Shown piece after piece: positions 1 through 64,000 of a stretch of DNA of 64,000 nucleotides. The notes beneath the pieces are model-generated. The model did no database searches, was not told the origin of the DNA, and saw only the letters and a list, made by a program, of their open reading frames with translations. Positions within the stretch are counted from its first letter, which is position 1, and each line of letters starts with the position of its first letter. The DNA lies in contig CAXXTH010000017.1 in the NCBI GenBank assembly GCA_963668025.2, positions 928,001 through 992,000 on the forward strand. Direction: 5' to 3'. Source of the stretch: Candidatus Hydrogenedentota bacterium (GTDB lineage: Bacteria; Hydrogenedentota; Hydrogenedentia; Hydrogenedentales; SLHB01). Made by a program: the position numbers and the translations under genes.

Positions 1-683
1 GTCGTGCCGGGGATATCGGTGACGATGGTGCGCTCTTCGTTGAGAATGGCGTTGATGAAAGACGATTTGCCTACGTTAGGCTTGCCGATGACGGCCACTT
101 TGGTGATGATTTCTTCTTCGGCGGATGCTTCGCCTTCCCCTTCCGGCTCTTCAATCGCTTCGCCCTCGGGCAAAGCGGGCAGGTGTTCCAACACGGCAGC
201 CATCAGCTCATCGATGCCCATATTATGGGAGGCGGAGATGGCGTATGGTTCGCCGAGGCCCAGCGAGTAGAATTCGGTGCGGTTTTGTTCGAGCTTGGCG
301 TTATCGAGTTTGTTCACCGCCAGCACCACCGGTTTTCCATACCGGAACAGCTCCGAACACACTTCTTCGTCGACGCGCGTGATTTCCTGCTGGCCATCCA
401 GGACAAACAGGATCACGGTGGCCTCCTCGAGGGCGGCCCGGGCCTGTTCCTGCATTTTATGCGTAATCGGGTCGAGCGGATTCTCGACAATGCCGCCCGT
501 ATCCACGAGGCGGAACCGGCGGCCCTCCCACGCGGCGCTTACGATGAACCGGTCGCGCGTGATGCCTTCCTCTTTATGCACAATGGCGCTTTGCCGGCCC
601 GTGATGCGGTTGAATAGGGTGGATTTGCCCACGTTGGGCCGGCCGCAAATGGCCACCAGGGGCAAACGCCGCAGCTTAGTCAT
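1..683 (-). CDS. der: Ribosome biogenesis GTPase Der/EngA (3' part runs off the window)
   Basis: Minus-strand translation MTKLRRLPLVAICGRPNVGKSTLFN...DTGG...NKLD followed by a second G domain GKPNVGKSS. Not in the ORF track because it is truncated by the window edge. Confidence 0.93.
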   Translation of the reverse strand, partial: MTKLRRLPLVAICGRPNVGKSTLFNRITGRQSAIVHKEEGITRDRFIVSAAWEGRRFRLVDTGGIVENPLDPITHKMQEQARAALEEATVILFVLDGQQEITRVDEEVCSELFRYGKPVVLAVNKLDNAKLEQNRTEFYSLGLGEPYAISASHNMGIDELMAAVLEHLPALPEGEAIEEPEGEGEASAEEEIITKVAVIGKPNVGKSSFINAILNEERTIVTDIPGT

Positions 684-2431: not shown

Positions 2432-3508
2432 CTACGATTTTTGCTCCGCTGGAACGGCGGCGGCAGGGGGGGCTGTTGATGGGGCGGCGGGATCTGCATT
2501 GGCCGCAAAGGGGATGCCGTCCGCCACGGATTTCGTGTCGGAATGCACGGTGAAATCGATGCGGCCACGCAACTGCCCCTTGGGCGCCGTTTCGGAGATA
2601 CGCACCTCGATCACGAGTTCATTCGGGTTTTGCCCGGGCCGGACATTCGGCTGGACGAGTTCATTGGACGCTTTTAAGCCGTCGATTTGGATAGGCGTAT
2701 CCGCGCAAATCGTCAGCACATTCGGCGAGACTTGCCCCTGCGCGACGCGCCCTAAATTCAGCAAATGATTAGGGGTGATTTTATAGAAGGGAACGACTTG
2801 CCCTTTCACTTGCACGGTAAAACCTTGGGCCATGCGCGCTACATTCGTAAAAAGGCGCACCACGCCTGGCACCTTGCCACGCGCCGCCGTCTCCGACACT
2901 TTCCCTGTGATCCAGTATTCCGCCTTGCCCGGCGAAAGCCATTCGGATTCGGGCCGTTTTTCGAATGTATATATGATATCCTGGTTTGGTGAGGAAAGCG
3001 CTACGCGTTCAATCGCCACTGGCTCTTCGCGTAATTGGCGCAGCAAAATCCGCCGGGTCACGGATTCGCCTTTAGGCACGTCGCCAAAATCAAACAGGCC
3101 CGGCTCCAAACTGAATTCTGGATCAATTTTAGCCGTCATCTTGACCGAGAGCGAGCGCGCGGTCGGATCATCCGTGATTAAAACGATGCTCTTTTGCGCA
3201 TCAAACCCCGCCACTTTTGCCGGATCGAGCTCCACTAACAAGCGGGTCGTAGCTCCTGGCGCAAGCACGTCCTGCTCGATTTTTCCCGATACGCACCCGC
3301 AAGACCCGCGCACGGATTTGATATGCAAATCGGCATCCCCCGTATTCTGGACCGTGGTTTCGCCTTTGGCGATTTGCGTGCCGGGCACCGTGCCCATGTT
3401 AATCTCTCTGGTTCCGGCCACTACCACCGGCCCCGCATAGGCCATGGCGGACGCCAGCAGGCTGAACACCCATATCGGAAGCACATAACGAGGAAGCAGT
3501 ATACGCAT
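2432..3508 (-). CDS. Secreted DUF1573 / Ig-like domain protein
   Basis: Signal peptide, NTGDADLHIKSVRGSCGC motif typical of DUF1573, repeated Ig-like modules. Confidence 0.75.
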   Translation of the reverse strand: MRILLPRYVLPIWVFSLLASAMAYAGPVVVAGTREINMGTVPGTQIAKGETTVQNTGDADLHIKSVRGSCGCVSGKIEQDVLAPGATTRLLVELDPAKVAGFDAQKSIVLITDDPTARSLSVKMTAKIDPEFSLEPGLFDFGDVPKGESVTRRILLRQLREEPVAIERVALSSPNQDIIYTFEKRPESEWLSPGKAEYWITGKVSETAARGKVPGVVRLFTNVARMAQGFTVQVKGQVVPFYKITPNHLLNLGRVAQGQVSPNVLTICADTPIQIDGLKASNELVQPNVRPGQNPNELVIEVRISETAPKGQLRGRIDFTVHSDTKSVADGIPFAANADPAAPSTAPPAAAVPAEQKS

Positions 3509-3739
3509 ACGAATGGACTCCTGAGCAGCTCATTGTCCCGTGCGCCAAAGTGGACCGTATTTATTCCACATTTTTCCGCCTCTTGATGCTATCGGGAAGC
3601 CCAAAAGACGGCCGGGATTGATTGTGCGCCTTGCAGGGCCGCCCATGCAACTCACCCAACCGGCGTGGCAAAAAAAGACTGCAATTGGAAGAAGAAGCCT
3701 TTTTCTTTTTCATGCCGTTGTGTATCATGCATTTCTTGG

Positions 3740-5170
3740 ATGAATGAACGCCTCAAATGGCCCCAAGTTCGAGGCGAGCAGGAGCGGATTGTGCGATTGC
3801 CATTAGTGCCATTATTGCGGGAACTCGACTCGGCCCCCCGCCGTTTTTTGGTTTTTTCCGTATTTAATGTGATCTCATGGCAATGTATTGCCGGTCCCAT
3901 GCTGGTGCTGTTGGGCCGAAAAGTAGGCATGCCCGCCTCCTGGATCGGGATGCTGCTCTCTTTCCTGCCCTTTTCCATGGTGTTGCTCATCGCCACGGTT
4001 CCCTTGATGCATCGTTTTGGGTGCAAACGGCTCATGCTGGCCACGTGGCTCTTGCGGAATCTAGCCGCGTGCCTGGCATTCGCCATGCCTTGGGCCATGG
4101 CTGCCTGGGGCGTACGCGGCGGATGGTATGTGCTGCTGGCGTCCGTGCTGGCGTTTTGCGTGATGCGCGCCGCAGGCGTTGGCGGATGGTTTCCTTGGCT
4201 GCATTCCTTATTGCCGGTGCGGCAGCGTGGGGCCTATTTCAGCGCGGAAGCTTCCGTTGTGCAGATTGTCACGGTTGCCGTGGGGATCATCCAAGCCCAG
4301 TTATTGAGTGGCGACGCCAGCCTGGGGCGTTATCTTTTCGTATACAGCATAGGCGTAGCCGCAGGGATCTTCAGCCTGTTGTTGATGGGCCGGATTCCGT
4401 ACGACGAGAGCATCGAGGTCGAAGCGCAAGAACACGCCGGACTCCGGTCGCATTGGCAAGCGCTGCATGATCGGAATTACATCCACTTTATCGCGAACGC
4501 GGCCGTTTCGTATTTCGCCATGTCTTGGCTCACCTCCATCATGGTGCTCTATATGCGCGATATACTTAATCTTTCCTCGCAATCCATCCTCATCCATACG
4601 TCCATCGGCAGCCTGGCCATTTTGTTGACCATCCGCTCCTGGCAAAAATTCGCGGAGTACAACGGCGATACGGCGGCTATATCCAGTTCACTCGCCGCGA
4701 CGGGATTATCCGCCACCTGTTTTCTCGTATTAATACCTGGTACGACTTGGATCGGCGTGGCGCTGCCGGTGTCGGTGATTTTGGCGTATGTGTTCACGGC
4801 GGCCTACAATATGGCGGTGCAGCGCTCCATGATGAATCTTGTGCCGGAGAGCGAACGCATGGGTTACATGAATGTATGGGTGATTGGCACATCGCTGGCG
4901 CAAGGATGCGCGCCCATTCTCGCTGGCAAGATCATTGATCAATGGGAGCTGGCGGGCTTTCGATTTTGTTTCGCCCTCTCCGCGATATTATCGTTGCTGT
5001 GCGCGTTTGCGGTTCGGTATAAAGCCAGGTCCGAATCGGCTTCGAGTGGAAACATGCTGTATATGTTGAATCCGGCGTTCTCTTTGCGGGGGCTGGCGCG
5101 GATCGCTTGGATCACCATTGGACTCGACAAGAGCAACACGGATACAACCGCGAAGGACACGCGTGAATAA
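3740..5170 (+). CDS. MFS transporter
   Basis: About 12 hydrophobic segments in two halves. Confidence 0.8.
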   Translation: MNERLKWPQVRGEQERIVRLPLVPLLRELDSAPRRFLVFSVFNVISWQCIAGPMLVLLGRKVGMPASWIGMLLSFLPFSMVLLIATVPLMHRFGCKRLMLATWLLRNLAACLAFAMPWAMAAWGVRGGWYVLLASVLAFCVMRAAGVGGWFPWLHSLLPVRQRGAYFSAEASVVQIVTVAVGIIQAQLLSGDASLGRYLFVYSIGVAAGIFSLLLMGRIPYDESIEVEAQEHAGLRSHWQALHDRNYIHFIANAAVSYFAMSWLTSIMVLYMRDILNLSSQSILIHTSIGSLAILLTIRSWQKFAEYNGDTAAISSSLAATGLSATCFLVLIPGTTWIGVALPVSVILAYVFTAAYNMAVQRSMMNLVPESERMGYMNVWVIGTSLAQGCAPILAGKIIDQWELAGFRFCFALSAILSLLCAFAVRYKARSESASSGNMLYMLNPAFSLRGLARIAWITIGLDKSNTDTTAKDTRE

Positions 5171-53277: not shown

Positions 53278-55169
53278 GTGTGCCAAGCATGGCGCGGATC
53301 TAAGGGGTGTAAGTCCCCTGCAAGCCCTGATGGTGGGAATTGCTAGCCAAGAGCAAGGGCGTCGCCGCGAGGCGGGGTCTGGAGGAAGCAGGAGGCAAAA
53401 GTCGGACTCGACGCACAGAAACCGGATAGAAGGCCGGGGTGGCGGGGCAAGCCAGCAATGGATGGCGACGCCCAATAACCATTCGGACACACCTTGGTAA
53501 ATCCGGCGAGGCCCGGCGGAAAGAGGCGCGTCTTACCTTGGGAGACCTGTTCATCTGTCTGGAAGAGCCAGACTAGCGGGATGGCAACATGTCGCGAGGG
53601 GTGGGCAGGAGTCAGCCGAGGCCATAATACCCGCAAGGGGAAGGGCCGAATCGATCATTCAAGGAGCAGCATTGAACGTCTCGTGGGATAGGGAGCGGCA
53701 GGAAGTAGCAGGTTGCCAGATGGAGTTCCCACTGGAGTCGGCTTGCCACGGCGCAATCGGAGAAGGCGGAACCGAATCGGATGCGTTCGAGGCGCGGCAA
53801 CTATCCCCGGCGGCGAACAAGAGGCGAGCCTTGACGCAAGACTTGATGGAACGGGTCGCGAGTCTTGCGAACCTGACGGAAGCGGTACGCCGGGTGCAAC
53901 GGAACAAAGGCGCGGCGGGTGCGGACGGCATGAGCGTACGCGACCTGAAGCGTTGGTTTCCGGAACACTGGCGGGGACTGCAAGAGGAACTGACGGCAGG
54001 GCGCTACCGTCCCCAACCGGTGTTGGGAGTGCAAATCCCCAAGCCGGGCGGGGGGATGCGGCAACTGGGCATTCCGACGGTGGTGGACCGAGTCGTGCAA
54101 CAAGCGCTCTTGCAGGCTCTCGAACCGCTTCTAGACCCGGCCTTCTCGGAAAGCAGTTATGGATTTCGTCCAAGGCACAATGCACATCAGGCGCTGCGGC
54201 AAGCCAGCACGTACGTAAGCGAAGGCCGCTGCATTGTTGTGGACATGGACCTGGAAAAATTCTTCGACCGGGTCAACCACGACATCCTGATGGCGCGCGT
54301 GGCGCGGCACGTGTCAGACAAACGCGTACTCCGACTCATCCGCTGGTTTCTTGAAGTCGGCATGATGCAGAACGGCGTATGCATCGAACGATACGAAGGG
54401 ACCCCGCAAGGCGGTCCTCTATCGCCGCTGCTGGCCAACCTGCTCTTGGACGACCTGGACAAGGAGTTGGAGAAACGAGGGCATCGTTTTTGCCGCTATG
54501 CGGACGACTGCAACATTTACGTGCAGACGATACGCGCGGGAGAACGTGTCCTGACATCGGTCACGCAGTTCCTTGAGGGGAAGCTGAAACTACGGGTGAA
54601 CCGCGAGAAGAGCGCGGTGGCGTTCGTGGGAGAGCGGAAATTTTTGGGTTATCGCTTGCTGGGTGGGGGGCGATTGGGCATCGCGCCCAAGAGCCTCGAC
54701 CGGGCGAAAGACCGCATCCGCGACATCACGCGACGCAACCGCGGCGACGCCAAAGTGCGCCAGATGATTGAGGAGCTCAACAGCTTCCTGAGCGGCTGGA
54801 TAACCTACTATCGGTTTGCCGAAGCAAAGGGCCATCTGGAACGCCTCGGGGAATGGATGCGGCGCAAACTGCGCTGCGTCATCCTCAAACGCCTCAAGCG
54901 CACGAAAACCATAGCGGACTTCCTTAGAAAACTAGGCGTGCCGCAATTTCAGGCGTGGATACTCGCAGGGTCCGGGAAGGGCTGGTGGCGCAAAGCGGGG
55001 AGTCCTCCCGCGCAACACGCCATGGACAAACAATGGTTCGCGAAACAAAAACTGATAGACCCGGTTCAACGGTACGAAACGTTCAAAAATGACCGAAACC
55101 GCCGTGGTACCGAGCAGGTATGCCCGGTGGTGTGAGAGGGGGGGACCGTGAGGAACCCCCCTACTCGAT
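53278..55169 (+). mobile_element. RT-encoding group IIC intron, copy 2, intact (1892 nt)
   Basis: GTGTG...CTACTCGAT; near-identical to copy 1. Confidence 0.94.
53672..55135 (+). CDS. Group II intron RT/maturase
   Basis: Identical translation to 29021-30484. Confidence 0.96.
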   Translation: MNVSWDRERQEVAGCQMEFPLESACHGAIGEGGTESDAFEARQLSPAANKRRALTQDLMERVASLANLTEAVRRVQRNKGAAGADGMSVRDLKRWFPEHWRGLQEELTAGRYRPQPVLGVQIPKPGGGMRQLGIPTVVDRVVQQALLQALEPLLDPAFSESSYGFRPRHNAHQALRQASTYVSEGRCIVVDMDLEKFFDRVNHDILMARVARHVSDKRVLRLIRWFLEVGMMQNGVCIERYEGTPQGGPLSPLLANLLLDDLDKELEKRGHRFCRYADDCNIYVQTIRAGERVLTSVTQFLEGKLKLRVNREKSAVAFVGERKFLGYRLLGGGRLGIAPKSLDRAKDRIRDITRRNRGDAKVRQMIEELNSFLSGWITYYRFAEAKGHLERLGEWMRRKLRCVILKRLKRTKTIADFLRKLGVPQFQAWILAGSGKGWWRKAGSPPAQHAMDKQWFAKQKLIDPVQRYETFKNDRNRRGTEQVCPVV

Positions 55170-56611: not shown

Positions 56612-57050
56612 GTCATAGGGCTCCTTATGATGATTCAGTTAAAAGAGGTTAAACGGTGAAACGATAGCATAAAATAGCAGCGCGTATCATACCGCGAAGC
56701 GGTTTGGCGATAAATGCAACCATTTGCCTGCTCTGATGTCGTTGCGCTGAAATAAAAACACGGCACCCACTACGGACAAGGTCCATATGGTGACGCCCAA
56801 TCACTTGGAATGGCGGATAGATGGCCGTCAAGAGTAGTTTTAGCGCAATGAGAAGATTTGCGAATCCGTTATCTATTTGAGATAGATCTTGGTGGTGCCC
56901 CATAAAACCACTTGAATCACCCCGGCGTCCTGGGGATAATCACGACATCAGGTGCTCCATTTTTACGCCGCCACCTGATTCACTTCTAAAACTAGCGCCG
57001 CCATGCGGAAAGCAGGCGAAGGCGCGGCCTTTGCCGGGAAGGGAATAACG

Positions 57051-58058
57051 ATGCGTTTACAGCATTGGATCACTCTTACGTTCATTGTGGTTTTACCCCT
57101 AGGTTGCACTGCGCCCGAACAAGCGGGCAGCCCAGCGGGAAAAGCTGTGCAATCAAGTGAAAAGGAAGCCGCTGCACCTTCCAATCAAGCCGCCGCGAAA
57201 AAGCCTCGGATTGCCCTGGTGATGAAGTCGCTGGCGAATGAATTCTTCAAGACGATGGAGCAAGGCGCGCGCGACTATAACGCTGAACACGCGGATGAAT
57301 TCGAGCTTGTGGTGAACGGGATCAAAAACGAAGAAGACATCAGCGGCCAGGTGGCGCTGGTCGAGCAGATGATGGCCATCAAAGTCGATGCGCTGGTAAT
57401 CGCCCCCGCGGACTCGAAGGCCTTGGTGTCGGTGCTTGAACGTGCTACGAAGAGCGGCATCAAGGTGGTGAACATCGACAATAAGCTGGATGATGCGATC
57501 CTTGCGGAGCGGAATTTGCAGATCCCCTTTGTGGGCCCGGATAACCGGAAGGGCGCCCGGCTGGCCGGTGAATACCTGGCGGCAAAACTCGAACCGGGCG
57601 CGGAGGTGGCCATCATCGGCGGGATTCCCAGCGCCTTCAACGCGATCCAGCGCAAGAACGGGTTCGAAGATGCGATGGCGGCAGGGAAAATGGCTATTGT
57701 CGAAAGCCAAAGCGCCAATTGGGAGATGAGCAAGGCGAGCCAAGTCGTCTCGGGTATCGTAAGCGAACACCCCGGCCTGAAAGCGTTGTTATGCGCAAAC
57801 GACAGCATGGCCTTAGGCGCGGTGGCCGCGCTTGAAGACGCTGGCAAACTCAAAGATGTCCTCGTGGTCGGCTATGACAACATTAGCGCGGCCCAGGCGC
57901 TTGTGCGTGAAGGCAAAATGCTCTGCACCGTAGACCAGCATGCCGATAAGCTGGCCGTGTATGGTATTCAGTATGCGTTGGAGCTTCTGAAAACAGGCAC
58001 ATCGCCCACCAACCAGGAAACGGCTGTAGAAGTGGTGTCGGCTGAGGACCTCGCGTGA
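57051..58058 (+). CDS. Sugar ABC transporter substrate-binding lipoprotein (RbsB-like)
   Basis: Lipobox PLGC; KSLANEFF, VGPDN, CANDSMALGA, VVGYD. Confidence 0.9.
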   Translation: MRLQHWITLTFIVVLPLGCTAPEQAGSPAGKAVQSSEKEAAAPSNQAAAKKPRIALVMKSLANEFFKTMEQGARDYNAEHADEFELVVNGIKNEEDISGQVALVEQMMAIKVDALVIAPADSKALVSVLERATKSGIKVVNIDNKLDDAILAERNLQIPFVGPDNRKGARLAGEYLAAKLEPGAEVAIIGGIPSAFNAIQRKNGFEDAMAAGKMAIVESQSANWEMSKASQVVSGIVSEHPGLKALLCANDSMALGAVAALEDAGKLKDVLVVGYDNISAAQALVREGKMLCTVDQHADKLAVYGIQYALELLKTGTSPTNQETAVEVVSAEDLA

Positions 58059-59029
58059 ATCAATTGAATTTGCCTCAGCCAAAGGAGGGAACGGCAAACC
58101 CTCGATGGAGAGCGCGCCTTGGCAGTGTCTTTGGCATGGCCTTTGCCCTCATAGGACTCATCATTTTGTTTGGCGTGCTCACGGACCACTTCCTGAGCAT
58201 GGGCAATGTGCGCACCATCGCCAATCAGATTCCGGCGCTGTTAATTGTTTCCGTGGGCATGACCTTCGTGCTGATTTCCGGAGGCATCGACTTATCCGTC
58301 GGTTCTGTTTTGGCGCTATCCAGCGGTGTGATGGGTGTGGCGCTGGCGCGTTACTCTGTTCCGCTCTTTCCTGCGCTGCTGCTTGCGGTGTGTGCTGGAC
58401 TGCTATGCGGCATGATGAACGGGATCATCGTGGCGTGGTGGCGGCTGCCCTCCTTCATCGTCACCTTGGGCATGCTCGAGGCGGCGCGCGGGGCCGCATA
58501 CCTTGTGACCGATTCACAAACGCAGTACATCGGCTTGAAGATCGAAAGGGTCGCGGAGGCGGGTGTGGCGGGCATCTCGGTTCCCTTCCTTGTGGCGCTT
58601 CTTGTGGTGATTTCTGGCCATGTCATTCTGACTAAAACCGTACTAGGACGCCATCTGGTCGCGACCGGGTATCGTGAGGAGGTGGCCCATTATAGCGGCG
58701 TCAAAACGCGCGGCATCCACTTTTTCGTATTCTCGCTCGCGGGCGCTTTGACCGGGCTTGCGGCGATCATGCACACGGCCCGGTTATCCGCGGTGGACCC
58801 GAATGCGGGCTTGGGGCTGGAGCTCGAGGCGATTGCGGCGGTTGTCATCGGCGGCACGAGCCTGGCTGGCGGCCGGGGTTCCGTGCTGCGCACCACCTTT
58901 GGCGTCCTAATCATCGCGGTGCTGGGAAATGGCCTGGCGCAAGTAGGCGCTCAAGAACCCACCAAACGATTGATAACAGGCCTCGTAATCGTCGCCGCAG
59001 TCATCCTGGATCATTACCGGAAAGATTAA
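58055..59029 (+). CDS. Sugar ABC transporter permease (RbsC-like)
   Basis: GGIDLSVGS, PSFIVTLG, ELEAIAAVVIGGTSLAGGRG. Confidence 0.92.
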   Translation: MNQLNLPQPKEGTANPRWRARLGSVFGMAFALIGLIILFGVLTDHFLSMGNVRTIANQIPALLIVSVGMTFVLISGGIDLSVGSVLALSSGVMGVALARYSVPLFPALLLAVCAGLLCGMMNGIIVAWWRLPSFIVTLGMLEAARGAAYLVTDSQTQYIGLKIERVAEAGVAGISVPFLVALLVVISGHVILTKTVLGRHLVATGYREEVAHYSGVKTRGIHFFVFSLAGALTGLAAIMHTARLSAVDPNAGLGLELEAIAAVVIGGTSLAGGRGSVLRTTFGVLIIAVLGNGLAQVGAQEPTKRLITGLVIVAAVILDHYRKD

Positions 59030-59390: not shown

Positions 59391-59980
59391 ATACTCGTTT
59401 CCAGGTAGGGACGCATCACTTTTTCGACTCGGCAGATTTTCGCGTATTTGAGTAGTTCACCAAAATCGAATTTCTTACGTGTTTTGTAGAGTTTTAAGGC
59501 CTCCAGCACCACGTCCATACCGATTTTATTTCGGAACTTGAAGCAATCGGCGAGTGTTTTTTCAGGAGTATAGATTTTGACGGCTACGCCGTCGATTTGA
59601 TGTTCCTCAATACCCGCGCGCTATGCCTGGCCGGAGAATCGGTGAACGAGGAGAGGCGGGTAATCAAGCGATGGCGCCCGTGACTCCCTGGAAATCGCTA
59701 CGGAGACGTTATGCGGAACTTGTGTCGTGATATCATGGTAAGCCAGCGCTGAGACGAGGCAGATGATTGCGTTCGGGAAACGCAGTCCAGTCGTCGCCAG
59801 GTCGGGATTACTGATGGGTGGAAGCTCCGCCAGACGATATACTCCTCTGCTTACTGGTTCAATCGCTCCTCTGTCCCTAAGTGAATAGAGCATATAGCGA
59901 GTGATCCCAAGCTCAATGGCTTCGCTCATTCGTAGTTGGCCGCCATATGAACGGAAAATATTTTCTGGATTCTCTTTCAT
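59387..59980 (-). pseudogene. AbiEi antitoxin with internal TAG
   Basis: SRGVYRL, CLVSALAYHDITTQVP; in-frame TAG at 59621-59623, then IYTPEKTLADCFKFRNKIGMDV continues to a TGA overlapping the abiEii ATG. Confidence 0.85.
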
Positions 59981-59990
59981 GCCTGGTCCC

Positions 59991-60034
59991 AGACAAATTG
60001 TCGCCACTTATACACAAGTGGTAACAATTTGTCT
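59991..60034. promoter_or_regulatory. Inverted-repeat operator of abiE
   Basis: AGACAAATTGTCGCCACTT-ATACAC-AAGTGGTAACAATTTGTCT directly upstream of abiEi. Confidence 0.65.
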
Positions 60035-60164: not shown

Positions 60165-61052
60165 TTACGTGGGCAGGGTGGAAGCGGAGATCAGCGTATC
60201 TTCGAATCGCAGCGTGCTGGATTGCCGGTAGTGGGAGGGAGACAGCATAAAACACGCTTTGAACTCCCGGCTGAAATGAAACGGATTGCAGAAGCCGGTT
60301 TGTTGGGCGATTTGGGCAATGGATTCGCTGCTGGACATGAGCAGTTTACAGGCCTCGTTCAATCGGATTTGTTTGACATAGTCCATGGGAGAGCATTTCA
60401 TATGCTCTTTGAAAAAGGCGTGGAACCGCGAACGCGACATGTGGGCCAAGCTGGCCAGATGCGCCACATCCATCGGCTCGGCCATATGCGCCCGGATGTG
60501 GGAGAACACCGAAGTCAGCCGTTCCGAGTGTTGCAGGATATTCAGGCTCTCGGGCCGCATGGGCGCACTGGCGCAAAGAATGCGCAGAATCGCATATGCT
60601 TGTTCCTGGCGCCAAGCCAGCCAATACAATGAATCGTCAATCTCTTGAGGATTCACATCCAGCAGGTTCTCCACGACCTTGCCCATTTGGGCGGCTTTGC
60701 TGGCCTCCAAGCACAGGGGCATGTCCAGCAGCGAGGTGAGGTCCACCGTGCCGAATAACGTGAAATGAAAATGAATCCAGCGCGCCCCCATCCAGCCGCC
60801 GCGCCCGGGTTCCGCGTGATGCACAATCGTCATGATACGGTTGGCGGGTGTCAAAAAGGCTTCTCCAGGGCGAATGGCCTCGGTGCGCCCATCACAGGTG
60901 ATTTCATATGCGCCGAACAGCACTTGCGCGAAAATCGTGCAGGGAACAATTTTCTGATGGACCAAGCCATCGGGAAGTTGCTGTGATTGGCCTGGAGCCA
61001 GAAAATGCAGCGTTAAAGCATCAGGCGGAATCGCGGATATCGAAAATTTCAC
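60165..61052 (-). CDS. AraC-family transcriptional regulator
   Basis: Cupin N-terminus; LASLAHMSRSRFH...IAQQTGFCNPFHFSREFK. Confidence 0.92.
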   Translation of the reverse strand: MKFSISAIPPDALTLHFLAPGQSQQLPDGLVHQKIVPCTIFAQVLFGAYEITCDGRTEAIRPGEAFLTPANRIMTIVHHAEPGRGGWMGARWIHFHFTLFGTVDLTSLLDMPLCLEASKAAQMGKVVENLLDVNPQEIDDSLYWLAWRQEQAYAILRILCASAPMRPESLNILQHSERLTSVFSHIRAHMAEPMDVAHLASLAHMSRSRFHAFFKEHMKCSPMDYVKQIRLNEACKLLMSSSESIAQIAQQTGFCNPFHFSREFKACFMLSPSHYRQSSTLRFEDTLISASTLPT

Positions 61053-61288
61053 GGCGGTATTCCTTAAGTGGCATGGCCTTCCCGGCCATGCGCATGGGCG
61101 AGACGCCCATGCTACGGAATAAAGTTCATTGGCTCCATCCTATCAGAGCCAGCAAGGAAACGGAAACCACTTTTTAGAAAACAAGACTCTCAGATATATC
61201 TTCGAGATTCGCGGGCATTCTCATATAACTCGTTGTCTCTTATAATCATATATAGATTCTCAGCCTTAAAATCATAGGAGAGTGCATC

Positions 61289-63568
61289 ATGAGCAGCAAT
61301 GGACACGAACTCGACCGGCGGGATTTCATTAAAACGATGGGCGCGGGTTTGGCGTTAGGCGGGGGAGTGCTGGCAATGAACACGGCGCAAGCGAGCGCGC
61401 CCAGCCGCGTATCCGTATCGGATTGGAGCCGTCCCGCGCCGTTTGCCACCCCGCATCATTTGTCGGACCAGACGCATGTATTGGCCCAGCGCGGATTGGC
61501 GGGCGAACATGGCCGGGCGCTCGTGAATGCCGATTTTAAGATCGATGAGCAAGTGACGAAAGCCCTTTCACCGGATATGCATTATGCCCATGCGGTCCGT
61601 TTGATGGCCGAAAAAGCGCCCTTGCGGGTATTGCCAGGAGAACGCATCATCGGCTCGGCGACGCTGCGCGAGTCTTCCACCCATAAGACGCCGGTGTTCG
61701 AGCAATACAGCACGAGCCACCTGACCATCGGCTTCGATCAAGTGCTTCCGATGGGATATAAAGGCCTGCGGGAGAAGATCCAGGAACGTCTTTCACGCGG
61801 CGGCCTGGATGAGCAGGGAACCGAATTGCTGCACGCGATGCAGATGTGCCTCGATGGGGCTGCAATCTGGAACCAACGCCATATCGAGTTGCTCGGCCAG
61901 CTCGCCACCCAGTCCAGCGGCCCGGAACAAGCCAATTATCTTCATTTACGAGACATCTTACAGCGAGTGCCGGAAAATCCGCCCGCGACCTTCGAGGAAG
62001 CCGTGCAATCGCTTTGGTCCATGTTCGCCTTTCAACGCTTGTGCGGCACCTGGTCCGGCATTGGCCGCATTGACCAAATGCTGGGTGGTTATCTGAAGAA
62101 AGATTTGGCGGAAAAACGCATCACGCTCGATGAGGCGCGTGAACTGCTGGCCCATTTCTGGATCAAAGGCACGGAATGGACCGGGGCTAATCCAGGCCCT
62201 GGTTCGGGCGACGCCCAATTTTATCAGAATGTGATCCTGGCGGGCGTTGATGCGCAGGGCCAGCCGGTGCTCAATGATGTGACTTATCTGGTGCTGGATG
62301 TCGTGGAAGAGCTGCATATCAGCGATTTCCCGATTGCCGTGCGCGTGAGTGAAAACACCCCGAAGAAGCTGCTGCGCCGCGTCGCGGAGGTGCAGCGCCA
62401 TGGCGGCGGAATTGTAGCGCTCTACCAGGAAGACGTGGTTATCGCCGGGCTCGTCAAGCTCGGGTATCCGCTCGAAGAAGCGCGTAAATTCGCCAATGAC
62501 GGCTGCTGGGAAGCGCAAGTGCCGGGAGCCACCTGTTTCTCTTATGTGGCCTTTGATATGTTGGGCATATTGCAGCGGGCGTTGAAAGTGGACAAGCCGG
62601 AAGAGGCCGTCGCCGAGTTTGCCGATTTTGAAGGATTTTACACGGCATTTCGCACGGAAATGACCCGTGTGCTTGACGAAATCGCGAATTTGTCGGATGG
62701 CCACGCCATGGCGGATCCCAAGACAGGGCCGCCCACGCCGCTGGTCTCGATGTTCATCGACGATTGCATCGAGCGCGGACGGGGCTATTACAATCGCGGG
62801 GCGCGGTACAATGTCGTATCGCCTCACGCGGGCGGCATGGCCAACGTCGCCAATAGCCTGCAGGTGATTAAGCGCCTGGTGTATGAAGAGAAGGCAATCA
62901 CGCTGCCGGAATTAGTCGCCACATTGCGTTCGGACTGGAAAGGCCAGGAACCGATGCGGCGGTTGATCCTGAACCGGTTTGAATTCTATGGCAATGACAA
63001 TGAGCAAGCAGATGCCATGATGCAGCGCTTGTTCAACGATTACACGGATTTGGTGTGGCGCACGCCGGAGCGCAATGGCGTGCTCCGTCCGGCGGGGATC
63101 AGCACGTTTGGGCGTGAGATCTTTTTCTCCCACGAGAGCTATTTTGGCTGCACGCCCCGGCTGGCGACGGCCGACGGCCACCACCAGGGTGAATTCTTGG
63201 CCACGAATTTCTCGCCCTCTCCCGGAACCGATCAAAAGGGCCCATCCGCGGCGTTGAATTCTTACTGCAAAATGGATTTCAGCCGGGCTCCCAATGGTGC
63301 GACATTGGAACTGAAGATTCATCCGTCCTGCCTTCAAGGCGATGCGGGCGTCGATGCGCTAGTCGGGCTGATGCGCGGTTTTATCCGCCAGGAAGGGTGG
63401 TTCATGCACGTCGACGTCGTGGACTCCGCCATGCTGCTCGATGCCCAAAAGCATCCCGAGAAGTATCCAAATTTGCCCGTGCGCGTCGCTGGCTGGTCCG
63501 CGCGGTTTGCCACGCTCGACAAGGAATGGCAAGACATGGTCATCAATCGCACGCAGCAGATCATTTGA
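61289..63568 (+). CDS. Glycyl radical enzyme (PFL-like family) with N-terminal Tat signal
   Basis: GIGRIDQ, NDGCWE Cys loop, C-terminal RVAGWS glycyl motif; N-terminus DRRDFIKTMGAGLALGGGVLAMNTAQA. Confidence 0.9.
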   Translation: MSSNGHELDRRDFIKTMGAGLALGGGVLAMNTAQASAPSRVSVSDWSRPAPFATPHHLSDQTHVLAQRGLAGEHGRALVNADFKIDEQVTKALSPDMHYAHAVRLMAEKAPLRVLPGERIIGSATLRESSTHKTPVFEQYSTSHLTIGFDQVLPMGYKGLREKIQERLSRGGLDEQGTELLHAMQMCLDGAAIWNQRHIELLGQLATQSSGPEQANYLHLRDILQRVPENPPATFEEAVQSLWSMFAFQRLCGTWSGIGRIDQMLGGYLKKDLAEKRITLDEARELLAHFWIKGTEWTGANPGPGSGDAQFYQNVILAGVDAQGQPVLNDVTYLVLDVVEELHISDFPIAVRVSENTPKKLLRRVAEVQRHGGGIVALYQEDVVIAGLVKLGYPLEEARKFANDGCWEAQVPGATCFSYVAFDMLGILQRALKVDKPEEAVAEFADFEGFYTAFRTEMTRVLDEIANLSDGHAMADPKTGPPTPLVSMFIDDCIERGRGYYNRGARYNVVSPHAGGMANVANSLQVIKRLVYEEKAITLPELVATLRSDWKGQEPMRRLILNRFEFYGNDNEQADAMMQRLFNDYTDLVWRTPERNGVLRPAGISTFGREIFFSHESYFGCTPRLATADGHHQGEFLATNFSPSPGTDQKGPSAALNSYCKMDFSRAPNGATLELKIHPSCLQGDAGVDALVGLMRGFIRQEGWFMHVDVVDSAMLLDAQKHPEKYPNLPVRVAGWSARFATLDKEWQDMVINRTQQII

Positions 63569-63575
63569 ACCATAC

Positions 63576-64000
63576 ATGAACGAAGCGCTTGTTTTTCAAA
63601 TTCAGCGGTTTTGCACGCACGATGGGCCCGGTGTTCGTACCACGGTGTTCCTCAAAGGCTGCCCGTTGCGCTGCGCGTGGTGTCATAACCCTGAATCGCA
63701 ACGCTTTGAAAAAGAGTTATCGTATTCACCGGCTTTATGCATTGGTTGTGGGGCATGCGTCCAGGCATGCCCCGCAGGCGCGCATCGCATCGTAGAGGGG
63801 CGGCATGTATTGGACCGCAGCCGCTGCCAAAGCTGTTTTCGATGCGTCCAGGCCTGTTCCGCCAGGGCCTTGGAGGCCGTGGGCCGGGAGCAATCAATCG
63901 AGTCCATCATGAAGGAAGTCGAGTCGGACCGCGTCTATTACGAAGAAACAGGGGGGGGATTGACCGTCTCCGGCGGCGAACCGCTGGCTCATTTTCCCTT
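63576..64000 (+). CDS. Glycyl-radical activating enzyme with ferredoxin insert (partial)
   Basis: IQRFCTHDGPGVRTTVFLKGCPLRCAWCHNPES, two CxxCxxCxxxC motifs, GGLTVSGGEP. Confidence 0.93.
   Translation, partial: MNEALVFQIQRFCTHDGPGVRTTVFLKGCPLRCAWCHNPESQRFEKELSYSPALCIGCGACVQACPAGAHRIVEGRHVLDRSRCQSCFRCVQACSARALEAVGREQSIESIMKEVESDRVYYEETGGGLTVSGGEPLAHFP

Follow-up and report, generated by a model that had tools for sequence, protein, structure and literature searches.

Glycyl radical enzymes (GREs) are treated as strictly intracellular. Their activation needs S-adenosylmethionine (SAM), a radical-SAM activase and a low-potential reductant, O2 destroys the radical, and the characterised enzymes are O2-labile and either cytoplasmic or bound in microcompartments. 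We wanted to investigate a gene that raises the question whether a GRE may work outside the cytoplasm. It lies in a stretch of 64,000 nucleotides from a Candidatus Hydrogenedentota bacterium (assembly GCA_963668025.2, contig CAXXTH010000017.1, positions 928,001 to 992,000), which we call the window, and encodes a GRE that begins with a leader of the twin-arginine translocation (Tat) type. Such a leader on a GRE is unexpected for both the GRE field and the Tat field. Two GRE families with a conserved leader of this kind, as described below, pose the questions whether Tat can carry a free-radical protein and whether periplasmic radical enzymology exists, and either outcome would be informative. 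That one GRE family and, apparently by convergence, a second one are equipped with a Tat leader appears to be new and is, at the level of sequence, robust. On balance we lean towards the reading that the window gene encodes a dehydratase- or eliminase-type GRE which is activated in the cytoplasm and then exported by Tat. The leader with its conservation and single origin, the complete catalytic motifs, the leaderless activase and the Tat genes were observed; we infer export, cleavage of the leader, the order of activation before export, activity in the periplasm and the type of reaction.

The enzyme, its leader and its module

The gene and its features were located in the window as follows.

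61289..63568 (stop codon included), + strand: GRE gene, 759 amino acids (open reading frame, Pfam, alignments, AlphaFold2 (AF2) model, Foldseek)
61289..61393, + strand: twin-arginine-type leader, residues 1-35 (TIGR01409, conservation, low model confidence)
61316..61333, + strand: RRDFIK motif of the leader's n-region (sequence)
61718..61720, + strand: His144, at the position of the active-site His164 in glycerol dehydratase (aligned with 1r8w and 5i2a)
62501..62512, + strand: Cys loop G405-C406-W407-E408, with the thiyl-radical Cys and the general-base Glu (aligned with GCVE of 5i2a and 1r8w)
63482..63496, + strand: glycine loop R732-V-A-G735-W, the glycyl radical site (PF01228)
61276..61280, + strand: Shine-Dalgarno sequence AGGAG, 8 nucleotides 5' of the ATG at 61289 (sequence reading)
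61218..61246, + strand: promoter-like TTCTCA-17-TATAAT, 10 of 12 matches (consensus scan only, weak evidence)

The gene encodes a complete GRE. The protein matched PF02901 (2.2e-106, residues 124-605) and PF01228 (9.5e-25), and phmmer aligned it with solved propanediol and glycerol dehydratases (1.7e-89 and 6.2e-83). The PFL-like profile was unmatched over its first ~140 positions, and the first ~120 residues of the protein itself, leader included, occupy their place. Cys406 stands on the catalytic Cys of 5i2a and 1r8w. His144 is aligned with the His of the 'GVGH' stretch in known dehydratases, that is, with His164 of glycerol dehydratase, which we take to be an active-site residue. In an alignment of 30 members the GCWE motif (405-408), His144, R732, G735 and W736 were invariant. 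An AF2 model made with 30 homologues had a mean predicted local distance difference test score (pLDDT) of 86.5, with values <50 only at residues 1-49 and 304-310. The model resembled the solved GREs 1r8w, 9rco and 5i2g with template modelling (TM) scores of 0.81-0.83 (Foldseek), and the clusters closest to it in the ESM Atlas were GREs only. A preliminary description of this DNA, made from its letters alone, had claimed that the leader is fused to a complete GRE; with PF02901, PF01228, GCWE and RVAGW all found, we can agree.

Further, we compared the protein with known GRE families. It scored below the cut-offs of TIGR01774 (356.5 vs 678.2), HypD (342.5 vs 1100) and CutC (241.8 vs 1050), and below that of every characterised equivalog model, sulfopropanediol dehydratase among them. 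Therefore we filed it in a separate, uncharacterised family of putative eliminase- or dehydratase-like action. When 1.84 billion representatives were searched exhaustively without a profile, members of this family scored 495-995 bits, after which the scores dropped to <=357 bits for other full-length GREs; nearly all family representatives were ~700 amino acids long and leaderless. GCWE was common to the whole family, leaderless members too. The preliminary description had called this loop atypical, which we could not uphold: GCWE falls column for column on the GCVE of diol and glycerol dehydratases and is therefore the signature of an uncharacterised family rather than an oddity of the loop.

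Closest in sequence and fold are glycerol dehydratase 1r8w, propanediol dehydratase 5i2a/5i2g, and 9rco. With these the window GRE shares the ten-stranded barrel, the glycine loop, the Cys-x-Glu loop, the aligned active-site His and an adjoining radical-SAM activase with a ferredoxin-like insert. It differs from them in having only 24-27% identity to them, and His281/Ser282 and Asp447 of glycerol dehydratase, which presumably bind the diol, are replaced by Ser256/Gly257 and Ser418 at the aligned positions. Since the diol-binding positions differ, glycerol or propanediol is an unlikely substrate. Known glycerol and propanediol dehydratases are cytoplasmic or reside in microcompartments, and they are not known to have a signal peptide. 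We regard the window GRE as a probable dehydratase- or eliminase-type member of the uncharacterised GCWE family. Some leaderless members are ~875 amino acids long (P0122 and loci L044, L048 and L060, from Lentisphaeria/Victivallales) and have an extra N-terminal segment of ~130-150 residues with no Pfam match.

The N-terminus of the window GRE starts with MSSNGHELDRRDFIK, continues with a Gly/Ala-rich stretch and then reads AQA. The layout is M1-SSNGHELD-R10-R11-D-F-I-K15, then the uncharged, Gly/Ala-rich h-region T16-T32 (TMGAGLALGGGVLAMNT), A33-Q-A35 and S36. The motif D9-R-R-D-F-I-K15 was recognised by a test for the Tat motif S/T-R-R-x-F-L-K, the consensus as it is quoted in the abstracts of Tat papers. 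The first 45 residues scored 20.3 bits against TIGR01409 (TAT_signal_seq; cut-off 16.7, E 4.9e-4). The pLDDT below 50 over residues 1-49, with a confident fold from about residue 50, indicates that the leader is a tail detached from the fold. Cleavage is likely at AQA before S36, as placed by the AxA rule. The ribosome binding site AGGAG, the RR leader, the Gly/Ala-rich h-region and the AQA of the preliminary description were all confirmed, at 61276-61280 and in residues 1-35. From its conservation across phyla and the mostly synonymous change of its codons, we judge the leader to be a genuine, selected twin-arginine-type signal.

Two further genes belong to the module.

63573..64000, + strand: 5' part of a radical-SAM GRE activase; the whole gene encodes 301 amino acids in the genome (L008:2574-3476) (TIGR02494)
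60165..61052, - strand: AraC-family regulator, divergent from the GRE gene (PF12833 2.2e-23, PF00165 4.1e-15)

The activase scored 190.5 bits against TIGR02494 (cut-off 174.35) and has Radical_SAM and ferredoxin-type cluster domains. Its CX3CX2C motif begins ~29 residues from the start and therefore leaves no leader, in agreement with the earlier statement that the downstream activase has no signal peptide. The divergent gene is of the AraC type, as had been said. It is a frequent, though no universal, partner of the GRE. We clustered open reading frames of at least 100 amino acids in 82 loci. For the leader-bearing GREs there were 165 neighbours up to three genes away, of which 136 were scanned and the 29 farthest dropped; among these 136 there was no conserved neighbour beyond activases and AraC-type regulators (HTH_18 in 5, 3 of them with a PocR sensor domain).

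The genome of the window holds four GREs, two of them without a leader. The other leader-bearing one lies in a second module (G000:C9:128975.., locus L003), with the GRE gene from position 1087, the activase at 3380-4282 and an AraC-like fragment at 3-599 (- strand). This second GRE is 65% identical to the window GRE and has its own RR leader, MASKASGMNRRDFFK (PF10518 20.0 bits). The regulator is 55% identical to the window AraC protein and has the same divergent position, and the activase is leaderless. In this genome the entire AraC-GRE-activase module thus exists in two copies, both of which have the leader.

We also searched the region between the regulator and the GRE gene. The promoter consensus scan gave 5 sites vs 4.3 expected in shuffled sequences. 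A palindromic hairpin of ~70 nucleotides lies beyond the AraC start codon (61055..61124) and could be an inverted repeat that binds the regulator. The search for a riboswitch upstream of the GRE returned only a hairpin match at 20 bits (gathering score 90); hairpin 61055..61124 has a match to a microRNA model that is equal for the two strands and lies far under the threshold.

Conservation and history of the leader

We assembled homologues of the window GRE by a word-indexed search, in which 2001 of 8000 candidate proteins were found at E <= 1e-10. The best 120 of these formed the homologue set and were 56-81% identical to the window GRE, the query itself apart. Leaders were counted with our own regular expressions, which missed a few true leaders (e.g. 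P0045 and P0121, recognised by eye). An RR leader was found in 91 of the 120. The remaining 29 were leaderless, started inside the h-region or were N-terminally incomplete, and P0045 was a miss of the regular expression. The conservation in close homologues that the preliminary description had asked about thus held for the 91 and not for the 29. The consensus of the 91 leaders was [MIL]-[NSD]-R-R-[DE]-F-[LIV]-K; position RR+2 was F in 85 of them, and position RR+4 was K or R in 77. The median leader had 8 residues before RR and 18 uncharged, Gly/Ala-rich residues after it (hydropathy 1.29), and AxA was present in 68 leaders vs 54 expected from shuffles.

Further, we compared the first 40 codons in seven pairs of related loci. 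There were 77 synonymous vs 60 non-synonymous differences, with 6 to 0 in one pair, and the non-synonymous changes mostly lie behind the h-region. Codon change within the n and h regions is mostly synonymous, and therefore the leader is translated and constrained. This bears on the reading that the leader is an annotation artefact and that the true start is Met17 or Met30, behind RR. In-frame ATG codons do exist at residues 17 and 30. Against such a start speak the AGGAG 8 nucleotides 5' of the ATG at 61289, the conservation of RRDFIK across phyla at the protein level with its mostly synonymous codon change, and the same leader on the paralogue. We consider a wrong start extremely improbable, and the objections that the preliminary description had named, a start downstream of the RR motif among them, largely fail. 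A stop codon lies in frame 12 codons 5' of the ATG at 61289 with no start codon in between, and 61289 is therefore the earliest possible start.

Relatives of the enzyme, leaderless members included, were present in at least 513 species-representative genomes. The best 80 genomes belong to Planctomycetota, Hydrogenedentota, Armatimonadota, Bacteroidales, Lentisphaerota, Chloroflexota, Kiritimatiellae, Spirochaetales and others. One carrier, an Alistipes cultured from the human gut, has a leader of the degenerate RS type.

We inferred a FastTree phylogeny from 101 rows and 715 columns, with Shimodaira-Hasegawa-like (SH-like) support only. The leader columns had been removed by a 60% fill filter, the fragments P0126 and L062 were left out, and the labels of L064 and L075 were corrected by eye. 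All 43 in-family rows with a leader fell in one clade (SH-like support 99). This clade comprises 51 rows, namely 33 with RR, 10 with RK, RS or RA and 8 leaderless ones, from Planctomycetota, Hydrogenedentota, Armatimonadota and Bacteroidales, and it sits within a family that otherwise has no leader, none of the other 45 in-family rows bearing one. The history of the leader takes a minimum of six changes on the tree. The simplest history would be that the leader was gained once, spread over four phyla and was lost several times, and that its RR decayed twice within Bacteroidales.

A second GRE family (P0203, P0270-P0302), with the loop G-C-E-E, is also uncharacterised and also has members with an RR-type leader. 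We found such leaders in 18 of 34 members, with leaderless ones alongside; by their source names these metagenome proteins come from Planctomycetota, Verrucomicrobia and Kiritimatiellales. Unlike the window GRE, to which it is 32% identical, this family groups in the outgroup with propanediol-dehydratase-like sequences and keeps the canonical GRE N-terminus, the PFL-like profile being matched from position 4. The RR-type leaders of the GCEE family point to an independent acquisition.

Some leader-bearing variants of the GRE are ~960 amino acids long. In these a Laminin_G_3 (LamG) or concanavalin-A-like lectin domain is inserted into the N-terminal helical region, behind the helix ending near query residue 170. 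The insert was matched in both proteins scanned with Pfam (8e-21 in P0053, 2.4e-17 in P0037), and precomputed Pfam assignments list PF13385 for 34 of 35 long forms. The AF2 model of P0053 shows it as a confident beta domain at residues 185-389 (pLDDT 88-97). An RR leader was present in 34 of the 35 LamG proteins from the database, the lone exception being N-terminally truncated, and in all 10 LamG loci (L036, L041, L053, L061, L064, L065, L068, L074, L079 and L084). The LamG forms are found mostly in Hydrogenedentota. Lectin-like domains are typical of secreted carbohydrate-active proteins, and we know of no lectin-type insert in any GRE.

Proposed export of an active enzyme and the readings that compete with it

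We wanted to see whether the genome of the window has a Tat system and other proteins with similar leaders. TatC was found at 212.3 bits and two TatA/B genes at 63.7 and 25.9 bits. A loose regular expression gave 162 hits in this genome, from which 10 open reading frames with an RR leader were chosen by eye. Nine of them had a Pfam family: a sulfatase, two GH109-like Gfo/Idh/MocA proteins, a phosphodiesterase, two aldo/keto reductases, a metallo-beta-lactamase-fold protein, a metallophosphoesterase and a DUF3604 protein. Sulfatases, GH109-like enzymes, phosphodiesterases, metallo-beta-lactamase-fold proteins and metallophosphoesterases are typically exported enzyme types. The leader of the GRE looks like these other presumed Tat signals of the organism, and it is of the same kind as that of the GH109-like Gfo/Idh/MocA proteins.

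The mechanism that we propose would run as follows. In response to an effector the AraC-type regulator would switch on the GRE and activase genes together. The GRE would fold in the cytoplasm, where the leaderless radical-SAM activase, using SAM and a cytoplasmic reductant, would put the radical on Gly735. TatABC would then recognise the folded, radical-bearing GRE by D-R-R-D-F-I-K and the weakly hydrophobic h-region and translocate it, and the leader would be cut after A-Q-A35. In an anoxic periplasm the enzyme would turn over without further activation, since each cycle restores the glycyl radical. Cys406, Glu408 and His144 would carry out a 1,2-elimination (of C-O, C-N or C-S next to a hydroxyl) on a substrate outside the cytoplasm, which is possibly derived from glycans.

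Such a course has a known likeness. In the DMSO reductase family molybdoenzymes, the [NiFe] hydrogenases and the reductive dehalogenases, which are cofactor enzymes exported by Tat, the catalytic equipment is likewise put in place while the protein is in the cytoplasm, and an RR leader then directs export of the folded protein. The proposed GRE differs from them in that, where they bind a metal or an organic cofactor, its 'cofactor' would be a free radical on the protein itself, produced by another enzyme. It differs also in its surroundings: among the 136 neighbours scanned we saw no gene for a signal-binding chaperone.

Several observations weigh against export of an active GRE. That there is neither a conserved chaperone gene nor another conserved partner beside the GRE is one of them. 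Another is the score of the first 45 residues against PF10518, which at 19.4 bits stayed below the cut-off of 22.7, so that of the two curated Tat-signal models the leader passes TIGR01409 and not PF10518. The leader was lost in 8 of the 51 rows of its clade and the deeper family is leaderless, and therefore the enzyme works in the cytoplasm in close relatives. The number of cysteines in the core was equal in leader-bearing and leaderless proteins (median 10 vs 9.5, p = 0.72), and the cysteine depletion looked for as a sign of life in the periplasm was not seen. Outside the cytoplasm, a GRE whose radical is lost has no way back to the active state, and to our knowledge no exported GRE has been described. 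The full texts that we searched, mostly outside subscription journals, held no GRE with a Tat or other signal peptide and no periplasmic GRE. In the passages concerned of PMC9324843, PMC3306737, PMC5606693 and PMC9719856 the search terms co-occur by chance, and no such enzyme is described there.

The Bacteroidales supply the remaining points of this kind. Ten of their leaders read SRKEFLK, SRSEFLK, SRADFLK or SRKDFLK, and TatC was present in 9 of these 10 genomes. We observed no TatC or TatA match in 4 of the 16 Bacteroidales genomes (G013, G014, G015 and G008, with loci L032, L037, L040 and L056). One of the four has RK, and three related genomes have intact SRRSF[IL][KR] leaders. Among the other genomes TatC was found in 22 of 23 non-Bacteroidales ones with an RR-leader GRE and in 36 of 38 with leaderless GREs; since it is near-universal in these comparison genomes, random incompleteness is an unlikely cause of the missing Tat genes. 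G013, G014 and G015 hold 8-12 open reading frames over the TIGR01409 cut-off (12-13 in Tat-positive relatives). With that many other Tat-type leaders, the GRE is therefore no lone relic there. The Tat genes of these genomes may have been missed or may be divergent, or Tat-type leaders may use another route. Decay of RR as a result of Tat loss was rejected, TatC being found in 9 of 10 genomes with RK, RS or RA and not found in 3 of 6 with RR.

Another route is what a further reading assumes, namely that in some lineages, perhaps the Bacteroidales with RK, RS or RA or those without Tat, the leader leads into the Sec route or is an uncleaved membrane anchor. The degenerate RR of the 10 loci and the 4 genomes with no TatC or TatA match would fit it. 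A GRE exported unfolded by Sec could not meet a cytoplasmic activase, yet those loci keep adjoining activases, and the window leader has the intact RR and the Gly/Ala-rich, weakly hydrophobic h-region typical of Tat. This reading concerns the relatives more than the window gene, and we hold it to be improbable.

The same observations can be read to mean that the leader is not an export signal at all. The GRE would then stay in the cytoplasm or at the membrane face, and the leader would be either a relic in the course of being lost or a handle by which a chaperone or the Tat receptor delays or controls maturation. A vestigial Tat motif on a cytoplasmic enzyme is known from the respiratory nitrate reductase NarG, and the RK, RS and RA leaders of Bacteroidales resemble such decay. 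Their occurrence in mostly TatC-positive genomes, the RR leaders in three genomes with no TatC or TatA match, the loss of the leader in the 8 rows together with a wholly leaderless deeper family, the undepleted core cysteines, and an activation chemistry that is strictly cytoplasmic and yields a fragile radical all favour this reading. In contrast to the NarG remnant, the window leader is complete (RR, h-region and AxA) and scores over the TIGR01409 cut-off. Of the 120 homologues, in four phyla, 91 retain all three parts of the signal (RR-x-F-L-K, a weakly hydrophobic h-region and AxA), the leader arose apparently independently in a second GRE family, and LamG lectin-type insertions occur only in leader-bearing forms. 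Nor did the 136 neighbours scanned include a conserved chaperone gene. We therefore regard a leader without export as rather unlikely; if it were true, it would be striking that Tat-like N-termini had been gained repeatedly to serve something other than export.

A third possibility is that the GRE is exported mostly or wholly without its radical, for a non-radical role such as binding or for disposal. Nothing known couples activation to the proofreading by Tat, and an exported enzyme could not be re-activated. We counted the adjoining leaderless activases and found them in 22 of 29 assessable leader-bearing loci, in 2 of 7 assessable LamG loci and in 7 of 26 leaderless ones, these counts ignoring phylogeny. 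That the LamG forms mostly have no adjacent activase is in favour of radical-free export. The 22 of 29 leader-bearing loci with a dedicated activase are against it, as are Gly735, Cys406, Glu408 and His144, which are invariant in the leader clade. With invariant catalytic residues and a dedicated activase adjoining, radical catalysis is probably under selection, and export without the radical has little likelihood. The adjacency of the activase fits a tight coupling of activation to synthesis, as export of the activated enzyme would have it.

What export of the activated enzyme would mean can be stated only tentatively. It is possible, and we would call it doubtful at present, that Tat moves a folded enzyme with a stable radical and that glycan-degrading anaerobes (Planctomycetota, Hydrogenedentota, Armatimonadota and gut Bacteroidales) perform glycyl-radical cleavage of C-O, C-S or C-N bonds in the periplasm, an ability then invented at least two times. 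The LamG forms would attach themselves to glycans, polymeric or sulfated, for which import is impossible. If this is true, it would be a radical counterpart to the periplasmic glycosidases and sulfatases, a new class of Tat cargo and a new compartment for anaerobic C-O, C-N or C-S cleavage. In sediments, digesters and animal guts, glycan turnover is dominated by organisms of the kind to which the carriers belong.

Genomic surroundings

The genes around leader-bearing GREs give a hint of carbohydrate metabolism. Sporadic neighbours were a sulfatase (6 loci), a fucose-isomerase-like protein together with an FGGY kinase (3 loci) and a GH95-like protein (2 loci), and PocR-type sensors, found in 3, give a hint of the same kind. 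We tried to derive the substrate from this context and gave it up, the sulfatase, FGGY kinase and GH95-like neighbours being too few to build on.

The following genes lie farther from the GRE, in the window and past its end.

53672..55135, + strand: group II intron reverse transcriptase/maturase (RVT_1 6.6e-41, GIIM 4.4e-18)
57003..59029: binding protein and permease pair of the sugar ABC transporter type, with no ATPase gene after the permease
59621..60007, - strand: AbiEi-antitoxin-like open reading frame (PF13338 1.2e-11), with short, unassigned open reading frames around it, up to 60165
L008:3625-5409, + strand, past the window end: open reading frame of 595 amino acids, 3' of the activase
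L008:5476-7050, - strand, past the window end: open reading frame of 523 amino acids, 3' of the activase

The AbiEi-like and the short open reading frames separate the binding protein and permease pair from the AraC gene, and the transporter operon at 57003..59029 may have been interrupted by mobile DNA. The open reading frames of 595 and 523 amino acids gave only a weak Metallophos match (1e-4) and were not conserved beside the GRE elsewhere. The genome of the window further contains many paralogous open reading frames with a prepilin-type N-terminus, DUF1559-like (e.g. at C10:1095399, C17:840532 and C19:79050), and PF07596 was also found among the neighbours in related loci.

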